Below are positions 14,201 to 26,296 of a stretch of 64,000 nt of DNA, piece after piece. The stretch is from a virus: positions 14,797-78,796 of the IMG/VR virus record IMGVR_UViG_3300041809_000308. One strand, given 5' to 3'. Numbering within the stretch: position 1 is the first letter of the stretch; every line of letters begins with the position of its first letter. The translations under genes were made by a program, and so were the position numbers. The notes under the pieces were generated by a model, which saw nothing but the letters and a program-made list of their open reading frames with translations, ran no database searches and was not told where the DNA came from.

Positions 14201-17200
14201 TGAGGGGTTGGCGAAGGTTCCTGAGGCAGAGATTGCCATCCTGAAGTTCAAGCCCGTTCTCGGTGCCATGGGGACGCAGGAATCGGCTCTTGGTGAGTGG
14301 CGGACTTACTCTGGTCAAGCTGTACAGTTGGTTGGTGATGTAAGCAAGACAGCCAGTGTCTACGATACCTACACCCCGGACGATGAGGATGACCACCCAT
14401 TGTTTGATAAATTAATCTCATTGAAACCAGCGTTTGTTGAATGCGTTCAAAAACTGTACAATAAATGGAGGCCAACCAAAACCAAATCCGGTGGTCTTTG
14501 TGACGACGTTGCAGCAGCATTCTCAGACATCATCCTGACTCATATAGCCATAGATGACATGGACACTGAACTTGGTGGATACACTGAACATGCATGGATT
14601 GTGGCTTACACTAAATCTGAATCATACGTAGTCGATGTTCCTTTCTGGAAATACGAATTCGGGAGTGGTGGGAACTGGAAGAAACTTCCCAATGTCCAAT
14701 TCACAGAAAACGACATCATAATTTTCCCCACAGATGAACTAATGGTTAAAACGGCGGCTGCCAACCCCCTTGTGATGTACCACGGCACCAGTGAGCCCTT
14801 CACAAAAGTGGATATGAGCAAAGGAGCACAGGGAGTGTTCTGGTTGACCTCCGACCCCAATTCTCTAAAGAGTGGAGAGCGCGGTGCATCAAGCACTAAG
14901 GTTATCTTGCGTTGTTTGGTTATTATCAAGAACCCGGCTGGATGGGAAGAGTATGAAAAGAAAAGTATTGGTGAGTTGAAGCGCGATGGGTTCGATGGTG
15001 TCATTCTGCCTGACCCTGATGGCAGTTTCGACGCCATTGTGTTCAAACCCAGTCAAGTGAAAATCGTGGGGGAGGAAAAGATTGCCTCCGGTTCAGTAGA
15101 AGTCTCACCCGAGGGTAGATTCAAGAACTTCACCCTCTCACTCGAAGAAAGAACTTTGGCAAACAAGCCCACAGTCACGATAAGTGCGTACACCATGGGG
15201 GAAGAAATCTATGTCGGTCATGTTACCTTTGTAAAACGTGATGACGGGAAGCTAGAGCCTGTGAATCTTGAAGTCTCATACAACTACCGTAGACAAGGGC
15301 TTGCTACAGCAATGTACATGTTCGCAGAGCAAAAAACCGGATGCAAAATTGCACCCGCTGTGGAACAAACAAGTAATGGAAGGCGACTGTGGAACCAACT
15401 AAACCGTCCCTTCGGTAATAAAAAAGAAGCCAAACAGTTGAAAGACATTGAAGGCAACAGAGATTTGTTTTCAACTATTGTTAAGGAGCAAGGGCTCACT
15501 GTAGAAACAGACCCCAAAGGCATTCGGTCGGCAGTTCTGAGACAACCCCTAATCCTTCATCACGCTACTCCGAAAAAGAACCTGCTTGAAATCGAAAAGA
15601 ATGGTCTCCAGCCTCGTTCGGATGATGGGTGTTACCCCATCGGGAGGAAACTGTTTCTTGGTCTCGAAGACACCTGTTCTCAATATTTAGGCGGTCTGGA
15701 AAACATTAAAAATAGTGTTGTGTTGGAGGTTACACTTCCGACAGGTACACGTATCTACGACAACGACTTTGAAGCGGATGAAGTGTTTATCCAAACTGCA
15801 ATTCCTCCGACTGGGATTAGAAAAACCGCCGCCCGTGGTGAAGCATGGCGTGGTCACGCTGACCAAAGCGAGTCGGAGGAATCCAAGCGTGCATGGTATT
15901 TAGAAATGCTTAGAAAACTGATTAGTGAGGCGAAGAATACACTTCGTGATGAGGCTGACCCACTAGAGCAAAAGCGTCTGACTGAAGCCATTAAGACCTA
16001 TGAGACCTTAAGAGAGAACATGGGCACACAAGGTATTCTATCCCCATTCAAGAGCGCCCTCCTGAAGTCCGCTGCCGACCTGTGGCACGGTGGACGTATC
16101 TATGGGCCAATTCAGATTCAAGCACCAACAAAAGGTCGGTATGAAGCTGGGCCGGGGTTATATTTGACGACCAGCTACTCGCGTGCATCTTCGTATGCGA
16201 AAGGTGGAGGTTCAACCTTCCTTGTTTCATTGAAGGATGGTCTGAACTTTGCTAATAAGGTTGAGATTCCTTTGAACGAGGGTGCGGAATTTGCCACTCG
16301 TTATTTAGGTAAGGGTAAACTAATCGCCAAGGACTTGAAAGCCAACTGCGAACGCATGAAGAAGAACACGTTCACGGCGGACATCCTCATCAACCTCACT
16401 GTCAACTACGAAGCCGGTTCCGGGAAGAGAGGCATGTACTTGTTGAACTTCTTGGTCGAACATGGCGTTGACGCTGCAATTGAGGAGCAGGGCAACGGCG
16501 AACAGTGGGTTGTTGTTTTCAATCCCAAGGTGGTCACAAAGGTCAGGAAGATTCCCGCCGCTGAGGTCACCCCTGAGATGTGGCATCTTCCGAAAATTGC
16601 AGCTATGACACCAGAACAGATGTTACAATCAGCAAAATTTTGGGAGAGCGCCTGTTTCTCTCACGGTGAACCGGGGAGAGTTCCCGCTGAGTCACTCAAT
16701 TGGAGAGAAGAAACATTTGACCTTAACAAATTAAAGGGGTGGGCTCAAGGAGACTGGGATTGGCTGTATGAAGATGAAAGGGAGAGAGACATCGAGAATT
16801 TCGAGACTCTTGAAGGTGCAGAAAAATTTGTCAAAGAGATGTGCGAAGCTATCAAGGATGGGACAATCGAAGAGATAGTTGTAGCTCAGGGAACGGATAA
16901 GAATTTCTATGTATGGGACGGCAATCACCGTGTGGGAATTGCCCACGTTATTGGTGTAAACACTCTACCAGCATTAGTGGGATACCAGAAGCCAAAGAAG
17001 ACAGCCTCAAAGAAGAAACTTTCCATCCTGTATCTGGATGATTGTCGCGTGCCCGACGACCCTGAGGTCATTCATGTTCACAACTATCAGGAGTTCGTGC
17101 AATATCTGAGCACGCACGAAATGCCTGACCTCATTTCGTTCGACCACGATATTGACCTTGAACACGCACCGACCGAAGAACAAGCACAAAAGCGTGATGA

Positions 17201-20989: not shown

Positions 20990-21751
20990 TTACACCAGTT
21001 GTGTCAGGCCCTCATCGAAAAACTTCCACTGCATTGGAGGAAGGGACTCTCGAATTTTATCCGGGTTCTGGTAGCGAGTCAAGGTGAATCCCAGTTTCAC
21101 CAGTGACCAGAACAATTGAATGCGGCTAATCAGTCCGGGACGTTCTTTCTGAAGTTCTGCAAAAACAGGGGGGATGTCGTCAGTGGGTACAAAACGGATG
21201 GCGGCTTCAAGCGACCACTTGTCCCCGGAGGCGATGTTGAACAACCCTGTTTCTGGAGCAATGGTGTCCCCCGTCAATTCGCGATATTGCTCAACAGCTA
21301 CATCACGGTATTTCAATGGGGCTTCAAGAGAAAGATGAACCTTGCCCGGTCCTACAAGATAGCCGAGAAACTTTGCCACGGTGCCTTCATCGTCAAATTC
21401 AATCGGGTCGATACTCAGGTAGTATGGACGGAGAGCCTTCTGCTCTTCTCGAATGTTCTTTTCCTTGGCGGCGTCAACTTCATTGACATCTTGTACGGTG
21501 TCAAAAGGAACGGTCCACGACCGTCCGTTCTTGCCTTTGATTGTCGCCGTATCGCCTACTAGGTCTACCAGTATACCACGCACCATCATGCCATTGGACA
21601 ACCGACCCCGGACCTCTATGTCCTCATCCTGCGCTTCTGCGAACTTAACTCTAATGGTCTCCCTGTGAGCGACCTTGAGTAGGTCCTTGTAGACATCCCC
21701 GCTTTCGAGCATAAACTCCCCCTGATATAGAAGAAAAAGCACTTTACTCAT
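20990..21751 (-). CDS. Hypothetical protein
   Basis: 253-aa ORF; the start may be the ATG at 21712. Confidence 0.6.
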   Translation of the reverse strand: MSKVLFLLYQGEFMLESGDVYKDLLKVAHRETIRVKFAEAQDEDIEVRGRLSNGMMVRGILVDLVGDTATIKGKNGRSWTVPFDTVQDVNEVDAAKEKNIREEQKALRPYYLSIDPIEFDDEGTVAKFLGYLVGPGKVHLSLEAPLKYRDVAVEQYRELTGDTIAPETGLFNIASGDKWSLEAAIRFVPTDDIPPVFAELQKERPGLISRIQLFWSLVKLGFTLTRYQNPDKIRESLPPMQWKFFDEGLTQLV

Positions 21752-21933: not shown

Positions 21934-22983
21934 CTAGTTCTCCGCGCTTGCAAGTACCCGGCACACCGTACGACGGCTGAGGTTGAAGTACCGGGCAATG
22001 TCGCTCCGTGTTATACCCCTCTGAGCCCGAGCATAGGCTATGATGGTGGCATAATCTGCCTTACGTTTCTTTTCTCGTTCAGTGGGGTCTTCAAAGCGAT
22101 GAAGCTGTGCTTGTCGTATCTTTTCTCTAGTTTCTGCGGAGTGGGTCTTCCCAATATGCGCTTGCCGGTTTTTCTCCAAGGTCTCAGGAACTAGACTCGC
22201 CTGACGTATCTTTTCACGCTCCGCAGGGTCTTCATAGTGACAAAGCAAAGCCTGTCGTATCTTCTCTCTATGTTCAGGAGATAAAGGTCTCCCTAGCTTG
22301 GCCTGTCGTATTTTTTCTCGACACTCAGAAGAGTGAGGTTTTCGGGAACTCCCTAAGTTCGCTTGTCGTATCTTCTCTCTATGTTCAGGAGATAGGGGTT
22401 TTCCTAACTTAGCTTTTCGTATGTTTTCTCTAGCTGCGGGAGAGCGAGTTTTACCCAAACAAGCCTGACTTGTCTTTTCTCGTTCCGCAGAAATTGCATA
22501 ACGACGACCAGCGGCTTGACTTGCTTTTTCTCGCGCCATTGGATTTTCAAAATAATGAATAGTGGCTTGTCGATTTCTCTCCCGCACCGAGGGGTCTTCA
22601 AAGTAGCGACGTAAGGATTTGCTTATCTTTTCACGGGATTCAGGTGTAGGAACTCCCCCCTCTCCTCCTTCTGTCATGTTGTAGCCGTTACTCAGGGTAC
22701 TGTAGAACTGGATGCAGAATTTCTCCACGTCATCGAGTAAATCTTCAGCTTCAGCTTTCACAGTCGCTATCGTCTTTACTTCAAAAGCATCCCGCCCGTA
22801 TTTTCGGATAGCTCTATGAATTGCGTACTCACTCGCCCGTTTAGCGTCTGCTAGATGATGATTCCACCGATGTTTCACGGTTTTAATGGTCTTTCCCACA
22901 TACTGTTTTCCGTTAATTTTGTTTGTAACCAAGTAGATATACCCGACCATATCCGTTACTCCGTGTTCAATTTTTTTCCCCAT
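21934..22983 (-). CDS. GIY-YIG homing endonuclease with NUMOD3-like repeats and a C-terminal HTH
   Basis: YIYLVTNKINGKQYVGKT, GYNMTEGGEG, repeated SPEHREKIRQA. Confidence 0.9.
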   Translation of the reverse strand: MGKKIEHGVTDMVGYIYLVTNKINGKQYVGKTIKTVKHRWNHHLADAKRASEYAIHRAIRKYGRDAFEVKTIATVKAEAEDLLDDVEKFCIQFYSTLSNGYNMTEGGEGGVPTPESREKISKSLRRYFEDPSVRERNRQATIHYFENPMAREKASQAAGRRYAISAEREKTSQACLGKTRSPAARENIRKAKLGKPLSPEHREKIRQANLGSSRKPHSSECREKIRQAKLGRPLSPEHREKIRQALLCHYEDPAEREKIRQASLVPETLEKNRQAHIGKTHSAETREKIRQAQLHRFEDPTEREKKRKADYATIIAYARAQRGITRSDIARYFNLSRRTVCRVLASAEN

Positions 22984-23552
22984 CTTGTTTTCTTCATGAA
23001 AGTCACAGATGTGATTTCATGTCCGTTGGGTCGGTTAGTTCTCTTCCCTTGCGGAGTTCCACCACAATCCCGCTTCTCTAATTTCCATCCCGCCGCTTTG
23101 AGACTGGTTCCGGGTTCGGTCTCCAAAATGTACGTTTGAATTTTGCGGTAGCCAAGTGCCTTGGCGGCCTTAGCACTCGCTCCGTACAAAAAGCTGCAAG
23201 CGTTGTCAGTACCATTCGTAGCCAGTCGGCACACTTCAATCGTCTTCCCATCATCGAGAGCCCTGCACGCGGGTCGCATACATATCGCTACACCCACTAA
23301 CTCTCCGTTCTTCTCACACCCAATGCTGAACTTGGCAACCCGAATTGGTTTATGGTGACGGTGCCACCGTTCGACCGCTGCATTACTCTGCCAAAGATGA
23401 AGGGGCACCACCTTCAACTTCCCGGCTTGCCTGAGGGCTCGGGCAGCTTTCATTTTCTGCCGACGACGATACGCTCGTTGAGCAGCGGCGTGGTCCTTGT
23501 GAATCTTGGGACGCCCAACCTTGCGTTCGGGTGATTTAATTGGTTTCGTCAC
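22956..23552 (-). CDS. XF1762-family / Mom-like GNAT-fold protein, putative DNA base-modification enzyme
   Basis: HRHHKP..KFSIG..GVAI..RP..RALDDG..EVCRLAT..NACSFLYGA..ALGY..TY..EPGTSLKAAGW. Confidence 0.75.
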   Translation of the reverse strand: MTKPIKSPERKVGRPKIHKDHAAAQRAYRRRQKMKAARALRQAGKLKVVPLHLWQSNAAVERWHRHHKPIRVAKFSIGCEKNGELVGVAICMRPACRALDDGKTIEVCRLATNGTDNACSFLYGASAKAAKALGYRKIQTYILETEPGTSLKAAGWKLEKRDCGGTPQGKRTNRPNGHEITSVTFMKKTRWGKKLNTE

Positions 23553-23560
23553 TCTGGTTC

Positions 23561-23633
23561 TGGAGCGAGGGGGAGGATTCGATACTCCATTCTCTGTGGG
23601 GGTACCATAGAGTCTTACTTAGATGACCCTCGC
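23561..23633 (-). tRNA. Atypical tRNA-Gly(ACC)-like gene
   Basis: 73-nt cloverleaf: acceptor GCGAGGG/CCCTCGC, U73, encoded CCA, anticodon loop GT-ACC-CC. The D-loop lacks GG and the T arm reads GGAGT-ATCGAAT-CCTCC. Confidence 0.7.
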
Positions 23634-23640
23634 ATGAAGT

Positions 23641-23649
23641 CTAATACTC
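23641..23649 (-). promoter_or_regulatory. GAGTATTAG promoter-like motif upstream of the tRNA-Gly-like gene
   Basis: The same 9-mer occurs at 25921(-), 41157(-) and 43805(+), with a variant at 25514(-), mostly just upstream of genes. Confidence 0.45.
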
Positions 23650-24295
23650 AATCTCTCTGGTTGAAAGGCCAACGCCAACGAATCTCATCCGACAGGGTTT
23701 TCAAATAATCCCCGTATAGCACTCGTTTGGAGTTTTGCAGTTCTTTTTTATGCGGTAGGCTCTTCTCAATCTCTGGCATAACATCCCTCGCCAGCACGGC
23801 TGCACGGATGACTCCACCGCCATTATCCTCAGAAACTGTAACAGGAACAATGAGTACATCCTGATGCTCCAATTTGAACAATTCATCCGTGTGCGACTGA
23901 CTCTGGTTCCCACCCCGGTCTGCGTAACCAAAGAGGAAGGAGGCGGTGAACACCCTTTGCATTTCAAGAGTCTGTGACTTAACCGCGATTTGTAAAGTCC
24001 CACAGCTTCCTGATGGGAAAAACAAATCAGGCTTCCAAGATTTCTCTCCCTTTTTGTAGGTCTTGGTGTCGGGCTCCTCTAATATAAACCCACGGGAGCG
24101 TAGATACCGATAAACAAGGAACTCGCCCATCTTACCCTCACGGGTTTGATGAAATATACGGAAGCGGTCTGACTGTCCACGTTCTTCGTAGTAATCTATT
24201 GAGGTCTGATAAGACTCCTCGGCGAAAGCACGACATCTCTCAATATCGCCGAGTTCAAACTTGATACGTATGTCATCCATCGCTCTTGTCTCCAA
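23648..24295 (-). CDS. Hypothetical protein, possibly PD-(D/E)XK nuclease-like
   Basis: GKMGEFLVYRYL..PD..IAVKS pattern. Confidence 0.5.
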   Translation of the reverse strand: METRAMDDIRIKFELGDIERCRAFAEESYQTSIDYYEERGQSDRFRIFHQTREGKMGEFLVYRYLRSRGFILEEPDTKTYKKGEKSWKPDLFFPSGSCGTLQIAVKSQTLEMQRVFTASFLFGYADRGGNQSQSHTDELFKLEHQDVLIVPVTVSEDNGGGVIRAAVLARDVMPEIEKSLPHKKELQNSKRVLYGDYLKTLSDEIRWRWPFNQRD

Positions 24296-25505
24296 AATTC
24301 TTGGTTAGCAACCACATCAACTCTTGAGTGCGATGTGATGGTTCTTTAGTAAGAAAGCCTGAACCCCGCCCATTCTCATACGGGATGTGGATGTTCTTGA
24401 ATTCGAACTGCTCCTTGGTCCCGTCAACGATGTGCCCAGTAGCCGGGTGCTTGAGGTACCAGTGAGTTGTGTTGTTCGCCTCGGGGACTCGAACCACCTG
24501 TGGCTTGTATCCTCGGGTCTTGCCCCACTGATGATACAGATACTCAGCCATGATGTAGCAGTGACCGAACGTCTTGTGCTGACCCTCAGCCTGTGCTCTG
24601 TATTCAGGGGAGAGCAACTCAAGTGTGAGCGCCTGTTGGGCCTGCCAGATGAGGAAATCAGCCACCGGCTGACGCATCTCATCTTCAATGATAACCACAT
24701 CACCAGCCGTCCAGAATTTCTTGCCCAAATAGGACTGTCGAATCTGAGTCTTGCGTTTAGCGATGCGTTTTTCTTCCGGGGTCTTACCTTTCCACGAGGA
24801 AGCGTACTCACCTTCAACCACCTTGTTAAAACCCTTCCTCCATTTGCAGAAGGTATTCTTCGGTATAGTGTTACCGTACTTTCGGGTAGACTTACCTTCC
24901 ACTTGGTTCATGCCGGTGCCTTGAGGGTGCCCCACAGCCTTACCAGCCGTTGCCCCAACGAACTTCCAGCCAGTGTCAATGTAGCCGCGCCCGTCGCCAC
25001 GTCCGACCGAAGGATCAGGCTCGATGAATGTCTCGAAGCCATAGACCGGGAAACCATAGATGTCCTGCCATACTACAGCAACAGCTTTCTCCCACAGCGA
25101 CAGAGCACGTCCAAAAAGCCCTTTCTCATGGTTCGTAAGACAATAGACAGTATTGTCTACTATACCGTTCATCCACCGGGACATTCGTTCTTTGGTCTTC
25201 ATCTCTTTAGAGATGCCAAAGAACTCATCCCGCTTCGCTGTACACTTCACAGCACCACCGCCCGAGATAATCCCGGCGAGTTCTCCGTTGTACCAGATTA
25301 GAAAATGGATTTGCTGTCCACGGTCGCCAAACTTCAACCCCTGCTCTTTCCGTTCTTTGGCGGTGAGGACTACACCGCTATTAGGAATGGCAACTCCGTC
25401 TTTTTCATCAAGCTTCAAGGAAGCGATGTAGTGAGTTTCTCTCACCTGTGTGAAGCGTGGGTCACTCGCGGAGACAAACTCAAGGTATAGAGACGGGACT
25501 TCCAT
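24273..25505 (-). CDS. DUF4338/Mom-like GNAT-fold domain fused to a papain/transglutaminase-like domain
   Basis: N-part HYI..FLIWY..RD.F.G..YG..FETF..GW.FVG.T.G; C-part GHCY..THWYL..IVDGT. Confidence 0.55.
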   Translation of the reverse strand: MEVPSLYLEFVSASDPRFTQVRETHYIASLKLDEKDGVAIPNSGVVLTAKERKEQGLKFGDRGQQIHFLIWYNGELAGIISGGGAVKCTAKRDEFFGISKEMKTKERMSRWMNGIVDNTVYCLTNHEKGLFGRALSLWEKAVAVVWQDIYGFPVYGFETFIEPDPSVGRGDGRGYIDTGWKFVGATAGKAVGHPQGTGMNQVEGKSTRKYGNTIPKNTFCKWRKGFNKVVEGEYASSWKGKTPEEKRIAKRKTQIRQSYLGKKFWTAGDVVIIEDEMRQPVADFLIWQAQQALTLELLSPEYRAQAEGQHKTFGHCYIMAEYLYHQWGKTRGYKPQVVRVPEANNTTHWYLKHPATGHIVDGTKEQFEFKNIHIPYENGRGSGFLTKEPSHRTQELMWLLTKNFGDKSDG

Positions 25506-25540
25506 ATACCTTGTTAATACCCGGTTTTTGAAAAAGGAAA

Positions 25541-25681
25541 AGCCCCTTCGTCAACTCACTTCCTTGCCAGCGGATGCGTCCACCCGCAGACTTTAGAAAG
25601 GTCCTTTACTGCCGTGTCCCGACGCTCGGATTTATGGGACTGCCGACGAACAGTAAGCAAGGGTGAGTTGACGAAGAGGCT
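25541..25681 (-). ncRNA. Unknown multibranch RNA closed by a ~25-bp stem and followed by a U-tract (also terminates the cluster)
   Basis: Inverted repeat agccccttcgtcaactcac..ccttgc / gcaagg.gtgagttgacgaag.ggct enclosing several hairpins. Confidence 0.55.
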
Positions 25682-25682
25682 C

Positions 25683-25768
25683 TCGTCCGGGTGAGTGGTA
25701 CGCCGTGTCGAATGGCTACGCCTCACGGCCATGCCATACTGCGGACTCCTTCAGTCTCACCCGGACGA
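25683..25768 (-). ncRNA. Unknown structured RNA
   Basis: Perfect 13-bp closing stem tcgtccgggtgag / ctcacccggacga with internal hairpins. Confidence 0.5.
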
Positions 25769-25775
25769 AACTTGA

Positions 25776-25873
25776 TGGCGGCGTTGCAGGGCGAACCTTG
25801 TTGCCGGGGCTTAAACGTCATTGTTACGGACGCAGGGCGAAACCTTGTTGCCCGGACTTAAACATCGCCGCCA
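25776..25873 (-). ncRNA. Unknown RNA with two tandem ~31-nt units inside a closing stem
   Basis: tggcggcg / cgccgcca stem; near-identical units at 25786-25816 and 25832-25863. Confidence 0.5.
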
Positions 25874-25876
25874 AAC

Positions 25877-26002
25877 TGGGTGCCCCGCTCAGGATTCGAA
25901 CCCAAGTCCACCCCACAACTCTAATACTCGCAGCCGAGAGAAGCCGACTTTTCTCAGAGTTCTCTCAGTAGAGTGTCCTAACCAAGCTAGACCACAGGGC
26001 AC
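25877..26002 (-). ncRNA. tRNA-like RNA with a ~50-nt insertion in place of the anticodon loop
   Basis: Acceptor TGCCCTG/CGGGGCA-C-CCA, D arm GTCTAGCTTGGTTAGGAC, T loop GGTTCGAATCC, total ~125 nt. Confidence 0.65.
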
Positions 26003-26010
26003 AACAACAT

Positions 26011-26175
26011 TGGAGCAAAGCTTTACGCCGAGGGCTATCGTTTCGAACCGCTTTCCCTCTTAAGGAGTCCCTTCCTCCGCCGACTACAAGGCGGTGTGCT
26101 CACGCCTAACATTGGGCACCATTTTGTCGGAGTGCGCTACGGTGACCGTTCGCTTTCCCCGGCTGCGCTGTTGCC
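26011..26175 (-). ncRNA. Unknown ~165-nt structured RNA ending in CCA
   Basis: The 5' GGCAAC.GC..GCCGGGG pairs with the 3' CCTCGGC..GCTTTGCT-CCA. It contains GGTTCGAAAC and starts just downstream of a promoter. Confidence 0.45.
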
Positions 26176-26183
26176 TCATTCAT

Positions 26184-26213
26184 AGTATACCTGAGTCACC
26201 CAAGTTTTGGCTA
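26184..26213 (-). promoter_or_regulatory. Sigma70-like promoter driving the ncRNA cluster
   Basis: TAGCCA-N18-TATACT with an A-rich upstream element. Confidence 0.6.
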
Positions 26214-26296
26214 GTTTTTTGGAAATTTTTTTACAAATAGGGAGGGGCACCCGGAAGGTGCCCCCAATTCAATCCTACGCTTGGTAGGCGAACGTC

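Follow-up and report, generated by a model that had tools for sequence, protein, structure and literature searches.

In this work, we analysed the window, a stretch of 64,000 nt from the virus record IMGVR_UViG_3300041809_000308 (record positions 14,797 to 78,796; all coordinates below are window positions), which belongs to a 78.8-kb fragment of a jumbo phage, about 25% complete, from wetland/peat metagenomes. The window contains a 73-nt cloverleaf RNA that ends 8 nt 5' of the start of a gene for a Mom-like DNA modification protein. This RNA is very probably a real RNA gene, maintained by selection, derived from transfer RNA (tRNA) for glycine and linked to the Mom-like gene. Its interpretation as a dedicated glycyl donor for the encoded enzyme, which was put forward in the original prediction, is partly supported. 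The position and the base-by-base description of the element in that prediction were correct. The element and the features around it are as follows.

23641..23652, minus strand: 12-nt promoter-like motif ATTGAGTATTAG, 7 nt 5' of G1 of the RNA, overlapping the TGA stop codon of a 215-aa open reading frame (ORF)
23561..23633, minus strand: 73-nt cloverleaf RNA, best read as derived from tRNA-Gly, ending in UCCA
23633-23627 with 23571-23565, minus strand: acceptor stem of the RNA, 7 bp, GCGAGGG with CCCUCGC
23623-23613, minus strand: D hairpin of the RNA, 3 bp, with the 5-nt loop AAGUA, which lacks GG
23612-23592, minus strand: anticodon-like 8-bp helix of the RNA with one A.C mismatch and the 5-nt loop UACCC
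23588-23572, minus strand: T hairpin of the RNA, 4 bp, loop UAUCGAAUC
23564, minus strand: U73 of the RNA
23563-23561, minus strand: CCA of the RNA
Between the CCA of the RNA and the GTG start at 23552, minus strand: 8-nt spacer GAACCAGA
22956..23552, minus strand: gene for a 198-aa XF1762-family/Mom-like GNAT protein, with a GTG start and without a Shine-Dalgarno sequence

The evidence for selection came from homologous copies. The related jumbo-phage contigs G001 (184 kb) and G002 (231 kb) both encode a Mom-like protein 77% identical to that of the window, and each carries one copy of the RNA, at L001:2490-2564, which is 76% identical to the window RNA. The cloverleaf is the minimum-free-energy fold of the window RNA (-22.5 kcal/mol, z -2.4, with 1 of 200 shuffled sequences as good) and was kept when the RNA was folded in a 131-nt context; the L001 copy folds alone into the same architecture. 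The two copies differ by 17 substitutions, eight of which make up four fully compensatory pairs, all Watson-Crick: A-U to G-C at 4-69, G-C to U-A at 6-67, and two more in the anticodon-like helix. One further change mends the A.C mismatch of this helix, and 20 of the 22 pairs are kept overall. In a neutral simulation of 200,000 runs, at least 4 compensatory doubles were obtained with P = 5e-4 and at least 20 kept pairs with P = 1.4e-3, and the joint P was 3e-5. As a control, the 3' partners were shifted by 1-3 columns, and no double changes appeared. In addition, a 16-nt block over the D arm, GUCAUCUAAGUAAGAC, is identical in the window and L001 copies, and conservation of the RNA is highest in the acceptor and T stack and in the CCA. 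The compensatory pairs, the kept pairing and the invariant block speak strongly against random pseudogene decay, the explanation that had been named at the outset as fatal to the proposal.

The linkage between the RNA and a Mom-like gene was seen in three lineages. In DNA contigs from two other wetland runs, X2 and X3, the similarity to the window runs from 23647, inside the motif, to exactly 23561, the A of CCA, with two differences, one of which repairs the A26.C38 mismatch. The flank 3' of this copy reads AGCUUGAUU-AUG GGU GAA GGC AUG AGU CAC, that is MGEGMSH, the N-terminus of the Mom-like protein P0011, and the RNA lies 9 nt before this Mom gene. P0011 has 71% identity to the Mom-like protein of the window when taken from the family alignment and 75% when measured by BLASTP. 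On the upstream side, too, the flank is unlike that of the window, and the boundaries of homology fall at the two ends of the RNA gene. In L001, a variant of the motif (CAGTATTAT) precedes the RNA, which is followed by 30 nt and a 140-aa ORF that overlaps the Mom start; here the RNA lies about 440 nt 5' of Mom. Run X5 contained one more, more diverged copy of the RNA. In the window, X2/X3 and L001, the arrangement of motif, RNA and Mom thus persists while the other neighbours change. These results support a physical link of the RNA, behind a common motif, with a Mom-like gene.

The identical 12-mer ATTGAGTATTAG stands 6 nt before the Mom ATG in the relatives L118 and L119, a layout that looks like a leaderless arrangement, and a variant stands before Mom in L120. 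The sequence GAGTATTA occurs four times in the window, three times ahead of genes or the RNA on the matching strand and once inside an interrupted tRNA-Leu. A scan of 22800-24400 with the sigma-70 consensus gave no promoter-like site, and the promoter function of the motif is therefore inferred only from its conservation. Thus, of the shared promoter-like motif proposed originally, a conserved motif 5' of the RNA and of Mom remains, but it does not match the sigma-70 consensus.

To see the distribution of the element, about 55 Mom-like loci were screened, drawn from collections of viruses, metagenomes and genomes. The covariance model R1 gave matches confined to the window and the L001 group, ARAGORN found no tRNA-Gly near the Mom-like genes of the same loci, and a custom scan for a Gly-type acceptor with a T hairpin at Mom-like loci added only extras at chance level. 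In IMG/VR, an exact 15-mer of the D-arm block occurred in 61 stretches, with real copies only in the L001/L002 phage, and a gapped pattern of three blocks hit 7 stretches with no new copy. The expectation that similar degenerate tRNA-Gly would lie upstream of XF1762/Mom homologues therefore held in three lineages (the window, the L001 group and X2/X3), but not at about 55 other loci. Among the sampled relatives of the Mom-like protein, the pairing is limited to one phage group. From this, the RNA is a rare, lineage-restricted and optional accessory, which the enzyme family does not require.

Two further observations were made at Mom-like loci. In L118, a 14-mer at 2838-2851 (L118:2838-2851), CCCTCGCTCCAGAA, equals the 3' acceptor strand of the element with UCCA and flank, inside the end of an ORF about 150 nt 5' of Mom; it may be a relic of a lost element. 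At L100:2755-2832 and L003:1755-1832, about 1.2 kb 5' of a distant Mom-like gene (50-58% identity), ARAGORN called a 78-nt tRNA-Ser(AGA). Its acceptor starts with the glycine-like GCGAG, its discriminator is A, it has no CCA, and its anticodon arm (TCCC-TAGAC-GGGA) is odd. This tRNA was the best non-self match of the model of the element (20 bits).

The origin of the RNA was indicated by the ordinary tRNA genes of the related phages. G001 and G002 carry 19-35 ordinary tRNAs, among them tRNA-Gly GCC, UCC and CCC, and the ends of these canonical tRNA-Gly genes are GCGGGAU...AUCCCGC-U-CCA, in which the CCA is encoded. The corresponding ends are GCGGGUG...CACCCGC-U-CCA in the L001 element and GCGAGGG...CCCUCGC-U-CCA in that of the window, a common pattern of GCG(G/A)G...C(C/U)CGC-U-CCA. 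As the acceptor ends match, the element is best read as a remodelled paralogue of phage tRNA-Gly, from whose gene it would descend. The canonical genes scored 59-76 bits on the Rfam tRNA model, but E>1 on the covariance model of the element; since each fails the model of the other, they form distinct classes. In G001 and G002, one element copy stands beside three canonical tRNA-Gly isoacceptors that cover decoding, and therefore a fourth, odd copy is unneeded for decoding. The record of the window, a 25% fragment, is without these canonical genes.

The glycine identity set was kept, as had been claimed: G1-C72, C2-G71, G3-C70, U73 and CCA are invariant across the copies, whereas 4-69 and 6-67 covary, and every loop variant contains a variable base followed by CC, i.e., a glycine-type NCC triplet (ACC or UCC). 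The glycyl-tRNA synthetase (GlyRS) of E. coli was reportedly found by Francklyn, Shi and Schimmel in 1992 to charge acceptor-stem microhelices. The bacterial glycine determinants are U73, G1-C72, C2-G71, C35 and C36, and U73 with G71 alone specifies the recognition of tRNA-Gly by the GNAT toxin TacT (PMC9976931).

By the usual gene-model criteria, the RNA is not a standard tRNA. Both copies have, in their minimum-free-energy folds, a cloverleaf with a 7-bp acceptor stem, a discriminator and a 3' CCA. The elbow set of G18, G19, T54, psi55, C56 and G53-C61 is broken: the window copy has U/A and the L001 copy U/G at 53/54, with U.C at 53-61. The loop of the T hairpin, UAUCGAAUC, differs from the canonical GUUCGAAUC by U in place of G53 and A in place of T54, and the T-stem pairs of the window RNA are G49-C65, G50-C64 and A51-U63. 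In place of a 5-bp anticodon stem and a 7-nt loop with U33 and an anticodon at 34-36, each copy forms an 8-bp helix that contains one mismatch. In tRNA numbering, the window RNA has the anticodon ACC followed by C37, and the energy-minimal fold hides the 7-nt loop with ACC, for which the G32-C38 pair has to open. The described loss of translation features (a D loop without GG, U53/A54 replacing G53/T54, and C37) was thus confirmed. The ACC anticodon is present in the window RNA, but it is not conserved: the loop is UACCC in the window, CACCC in the X2/X3 variant (U33 changed to C) and AAUUCCA (7 nt) in L001, and the N-C-C alone persists. ARAGORN at default settings detected zero tRNA genes across the window, and at a 70% threshold (-ps70) it called the RNA as tRNA-Gly(acc) amid 11 spurious calls. 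The Rfam tRNA model RF00005 did not match the RNA at the gathering threshold or at E<=10 (3 kb and 106 nt searched), and it had no match in the whole record. The loss of the elbow nucleotides suggests that the RNA would bind elongation factor Tu (EF-Tu) weakly and would not be used by the ribosome.

The 198-aa protein encoded downstream matched NCBIfam NF045478 XF1762_fam with 160 bits, where the cut-off is 50 (E 2.7e-47), and PHROG 1384 'Mom-like DNA modification protein' with E 4.6e-32. It had no Pfam match to Mom (PF25680) at E<=0.01, and a 54%-identical homologue, P0059, passes the Pfam Mom threshold (32.9 bits vs 27.1). An AlphaFold 2 (AF2) model built from 18 relatives had a predicted local distance difference test (pLDDT) score of 81.3, and its top Foldseek match in the PDB was Mu Mom, 8bv8_B (E 8.1e-8, template modelling (TM) score 0.60), slightly ahead of generic GNATs, with 16% identity in the structural alignment. 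In a sequence-based MAFFT alignment via Pfam-Mom-positive intermediates, R109 (EVCR) falls on R111 (ELNR) of Mu Mom and S120 (NACS) on S124, and R109 and S120 are invariant in the 18 relatives. R111 and S124 are essential residues in Mu Mom. A profile comparison with Mu Mom by hhalign was not significant and a PDB sequence search gave no Mom match; the link to Mom is drawn instead from the fold search and the stepwise alignment.

The statement that Mu Mom uses Gly-tRNAGly for adenine hypermodification was correct: Mu Mom moves glycine from Gly-tRNAGly to the N6-adenine of double-stranded DNA, and an on-base rearrangement follows (Silva et al., Nat Commun 2026, PMC13219725; preprint 10.1101/2023.03.24.534169). 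It accepts all three E. coli isoacceptors, rejects Gly-tRNAAla and needs the terminal riboadenosine, and features of the 3' end appear to direct its specificity (PMC13219725). Mu Mom and two homologues from metagenomes are the only proteins for which glycine transfer to adenine N6 is established, and the same paper is silent on tRNA-like, phage-encoded or dedicated tRNAs beside Mom genes (PMC13219725). In a literature search, no description of a Mom homologue with a tRNA-like gene as its partner came up.

Some relatives of the Mom-like protein differ in their ends. Mom-like domains with 64-74% identity are fused to the C-terminus of larger proteins at L084:903-2267 (454 aa), in L085 and L087, and in P0030, and one of the fused domains is partnered with an N6/N4 DNA methylase domain (PF01555). 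In P0004, P0007, P0008, P0010, P0012, P0014 and P0017, and at L133:113-250, a conserved open frame of about 45 codons (…GTPTNEVVGNAAK…) precedes the usual Mom start. The putative extension of about 45 aa in the P0004 subgroup was considered as a translated variant of the element, and this was ruled out by the DNA of L133.

The genes on the minus strand follow, from high to low coordinates, in the order of the DruA-like gene, the 215-aa ORF, a 95-nt spacer, the 198-aa Mom-like gene and a GIY-YIG/NUMOD3 gene. The neighbours are as follows.

24273..25505, minus strand: 410-aa DruA-like gene, Pfam DruA E 0.002
23648..24295, minus strand: 215-aa ORF with weak EndA-like matches only
21934..22983, minus strand: free-standing GIY-YIG/NUMOD3/HTH homing-endonuclease gene, sharing 28 nt with the 3' end of the Mom-like gene

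A DruA-like homologue, 35% identical to that of the window, is encoded at L001:4259-5083 (Pfam DruA, PF14236, E 1.3e-10), and in both phages this gene lies near the RNA and Mom. The DruA-like and Mom-like proteins have a common C-terminal pattern, GW..G.PQG..R..G..I..TF.K.W, and a profile comparison between them was not significant. The DruA-like protein may be a second acyltransferase of the Mom superfamily; it had no match in cultured phages. The matches of the 215-aa protein to the tRNA-splicing endonuclease EndA were below threshold (E 0.015-0.043), and its single-sequence AF2 model was unusable (pLDDT 42.6). The homing-endonuclease gene is missing at the matching place in L001, where Mom directly precedes a 230-aa homologue of window 20990-21751.

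Other tRNA-related features were found upstream of the DruA-like gene and in G002. At 25877-26001 on the minus strand, an intron search with ARAGORN called a tRNA-Leu(GAG) in which 38 nt are inserted immediately behind the anticodon loop; its D loop, with GG, is normal, its T arm is GGUUCGAAUCC, and it was missed by default ARAGORN and by Rfam. It lies within a stretch of about 800 nt without ORFs (25506-26296, minus strand), which also contains tRNA-like scraps (GGUUCGAAAC, ...UGCUCCA), two direct repeats of about 30 nt and a weak match to the transfer-messenger RNA model (11 bits); 26063-26122 is 81% like a spot within the tRNA cluster of G001. In G002, L011:1595-2299 (= G002:148087-148791) encodes a 235-aa protein that consists only of the GlyRS catalytic core (NF003211, E 5e-14; PDB GlyRS 8t5n, E 1.4e-5). 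This mini-GlyRS has the class II motifs 2 and 3 and no anticodon-binding domain, and its gene begins some 20 nt downstream of tRNA-Gly(CCC). A 60% homologue is present in an 87%-complete phage (G008; L141) without the element and without an XF1762 gene. The mini-GlyRS was considered as the dedicated charger of the element and set aside: no tie between the two was shown, and the homologue in G008 occurs without the element or an XF1762 gene.

Since Mu Mom takes glycine from charged tRNA-Gly, the RNA may be a private glycine carrier of the Mom-like enzyme. In this reading, the RNA and the Mom mRNA would be transcribed as one unit; no terminator was found after the CCA. Processing of the tRNA ends, by RNase P at G1 and by 3' trimming to CCA, would free the RNA, and the same processing would leave a nearly leaderless Mom mRNA. 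Host GlyRS, reading mainly the acceptor end and C35/C36, would then glycylate the RNA. Without the tRNA elbow, the RNA would be a poor substrate of EF-Tu and the ribosome, so that the Mom-like enzyme, and perhaps the neighbouring DruA-like enzyme too, could draw on the glycyl-RNA as a private acyl donor. The Mom-like enzyme would finally acylate adenine in phage DNA, as Mu Mom does. We propose tentatively, at somewhat less than an even chance, that the RNA is a non-translational glycyl donor for the Mom-like enzyme. An extended form, a self-supplied and translation-independent aminoacyl-donor circuit, may also be conceived, in which a tRNA-Gly unusable by the ribosome is co-transcribed in some phages with a Mom-type GNAT as its preferred carrier, a DruA-like GNAT may use it too in some genomes, and a mini-GlyRS such as that of G002 may charge it regardless of the loop; this form is doubtful.

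Concerning expression, the metatranscriptome run X16 contained a single 208-nt contig identical to 23468-23675, which spans the RNA together with some 40 nt on its upstream side and some 90 nt of Mom; this was the sole coverage of the 1.4-kb stretch compared, and the parts without cover carry no information. The contig fits a co-transcript or a precursor. It is a weak hint, since neither ends nor levels can be read from contigs and DNA may have been carried over.

Several observations weigh against the RNA as a dedicated donor. The X16 contig overruns both predicted ends of the mature RNA, and it could come from carried-over DNA. The GlyRS of T. thermophilus also reads G10, U16 and C50-G64, and the element has A10 and G50-C64 instead of G10 and C50-G64. 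The shifts in loop size and register (5-nt UACCC/CACCC; 7-nt AAUUCCA with UCC one off) may mean that C35 and C36 are not presented to GlyRS. The close relatives L118/L119, L120 and L121, whose Mom-like proteins are 72-77% identical, are without the RNA, and it is also missing from the acidobacterial contigs L133, L134 and L135 (metagenome-assembled genomes), from L084-L088 (including fused forms) and from about 40 more distant loci. As most Mom-like genes are without the RNA, the enzyme evidently works with ordinary tRNA-Gly. Furthermore, the covariation is based on two full sequences and on differences read from contigs only, and the donor model leaves the invariant 16-nt D-arm block unexplained.

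The main rival is a cis-acting role, in which the element is a tRNA-like leader or processing signal, cleavage by RNase P and the 3' enzymes sets the 5' end, the stability or the translation of a toxic Mom mRNA, and the freed RNA would do nothing further. TRNA-like elements read by RNase P and RNase Z, such as mascRNA and mitochondrial tRNA punctuation, need no amino-acid identity set, and a cloverleaf in a longer transcript could likewise mark cleavage sites and free the downstream mRNA. The RNA indeed separates the conserved motif from a start codon that has no Shine-Dalgarno sequence, while the motif abuts the ATG in relatives; no terminator follows the CCA, and the parts that RNase P reads (acceptor and T stack, CCA) are the best conserved. 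Mu mom is described as needing special translational control, by Com (PMC6483171). However, processing alone leaves the glycine-type nucleotides unexplained: it needs neither U73, nor G1-C72, C2-G71 and G3-C70, nor the N-C-C triplet, yet all persist. In addition, the RNA in L001 precedes a different ORF, 30 nt downstream, and not Mom. We consider a purely cis-acting role unlikely but far from negligible, and it is compatible with the RNA also being a donor, not exclusive of it.

On the other hand, the RNA could act in trans as a decoy or sponge for a host factor that targets tRNA-Gly, such as an acetylating GNAT toxin or a tRNA nuclease, or as a regulator of a tRNA-sensing system, its proximity to Mom then reflecting an anti-defence cluster. 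The acceptor end matches the reading of TacT type (U73, G71), and the neighbours, Mom-like and DruA-like, are of a counter-defence type. A toxin or target candidate is lacking, however, and a decoy does not predict the tight and repeated placement before the Mom start across differing neighbourhoods, so that this role is quite improbable.

A decaying tRNA-Gly pseudogene or a chance cloverleaf would agree with the failure of ARAGORN and Rfam, with the other tRNA scraps nearby in the window and with the many relatives without the RNA, but it is very unlikely in view of the 4 compensatory doubles, the 20/22 kept pairs (P 3e-5), the invariant 16-nt block and a near-identical copy (2 differences) beside a Mom gene of only about 71% identity, with boundaries exactly at the element ends. 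Finally, the N-C-C triplet, the glycine acceptor identity and the encoded CCA would suit an odd but working tRNA-Gly that decodes GGN for the phage, which is nevertheless hardly credible: there is no G18/G19, A54 or G54 replaces T54, 53-61 is unpaired, loop size and register differ between the copies, U33 is changed to C in one variant, and the relative already holds all three canonical tRNA-Gly genes.

The proposed donor RNA can be compared with known systems. The precedent of non-proteinogenic tRNA-Gly in staphylococci, named in the original prediction, is real: in S. aureus and S. epidermidis, the non-proteogenic (NP) tRNAGly NP1-NP3 donate to FmhB/FemA/FemB (PMC7826273). They are, like the phage RNA, extra tRNA-Gly copies beside canonical ones. 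The normal GlyRS charges them, their binding to EF-Tu is weak, and an aminoacyl-tRNA-dependent transferase that acts outside translation uses them by preference (PMC7826273). The staphylococcal RNAs, however, are bacterial, can still be recognised as tRNAs, have a normal anticodon loop, take part in peptidoglycan synthesis and do not have their genes next to that of the enzyme, whereas the phage RNA is phage-encoded, far more degenerate and placed in the transcription unit of the enzyme, with DNA as the presumed acceptor. Mu Mom (PF25680; PDB 8bv8) has in common with the window protein the GNAT fold, the conserved essential Arg and Ser and the Mom-like annotation, but Mu uses host tRNA-Gly, encodes no tRNA and has mom under Com control, and the window protein belongs to the XF1762 family. 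The canonical phage tRNA-Gly of G001/G002, the likely ancestor, has in common with the element the start GCGGG, U73, the encoded CCA and the UCGAA core of the T loop; it differs in lying in tRNA clusters, whereas the element has remodelled D and T loops and a remodelled anticodon arm. That the known principle, in which a non-proteogenic tRNA-Gly serves an aminoacyl-tRNA transferase, is applied here to tRNA-dependent DNA modification is suggested by this analogy, and we give it not quite even weight.

RNAs of this class are missed by the standard tRNA finders. If the RNA is indeed a glycyl donor for the Mom-like enzyme, the principle of non-proteogenic tRNA would be extended to viruses and to DNA chemistry, and the supply of the donor during host shut-off or attack on the host tRNAs would be explained. 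A 73-nt RNA and a 198-aa enzyme would then make up a compact two-part module for DNA modification.

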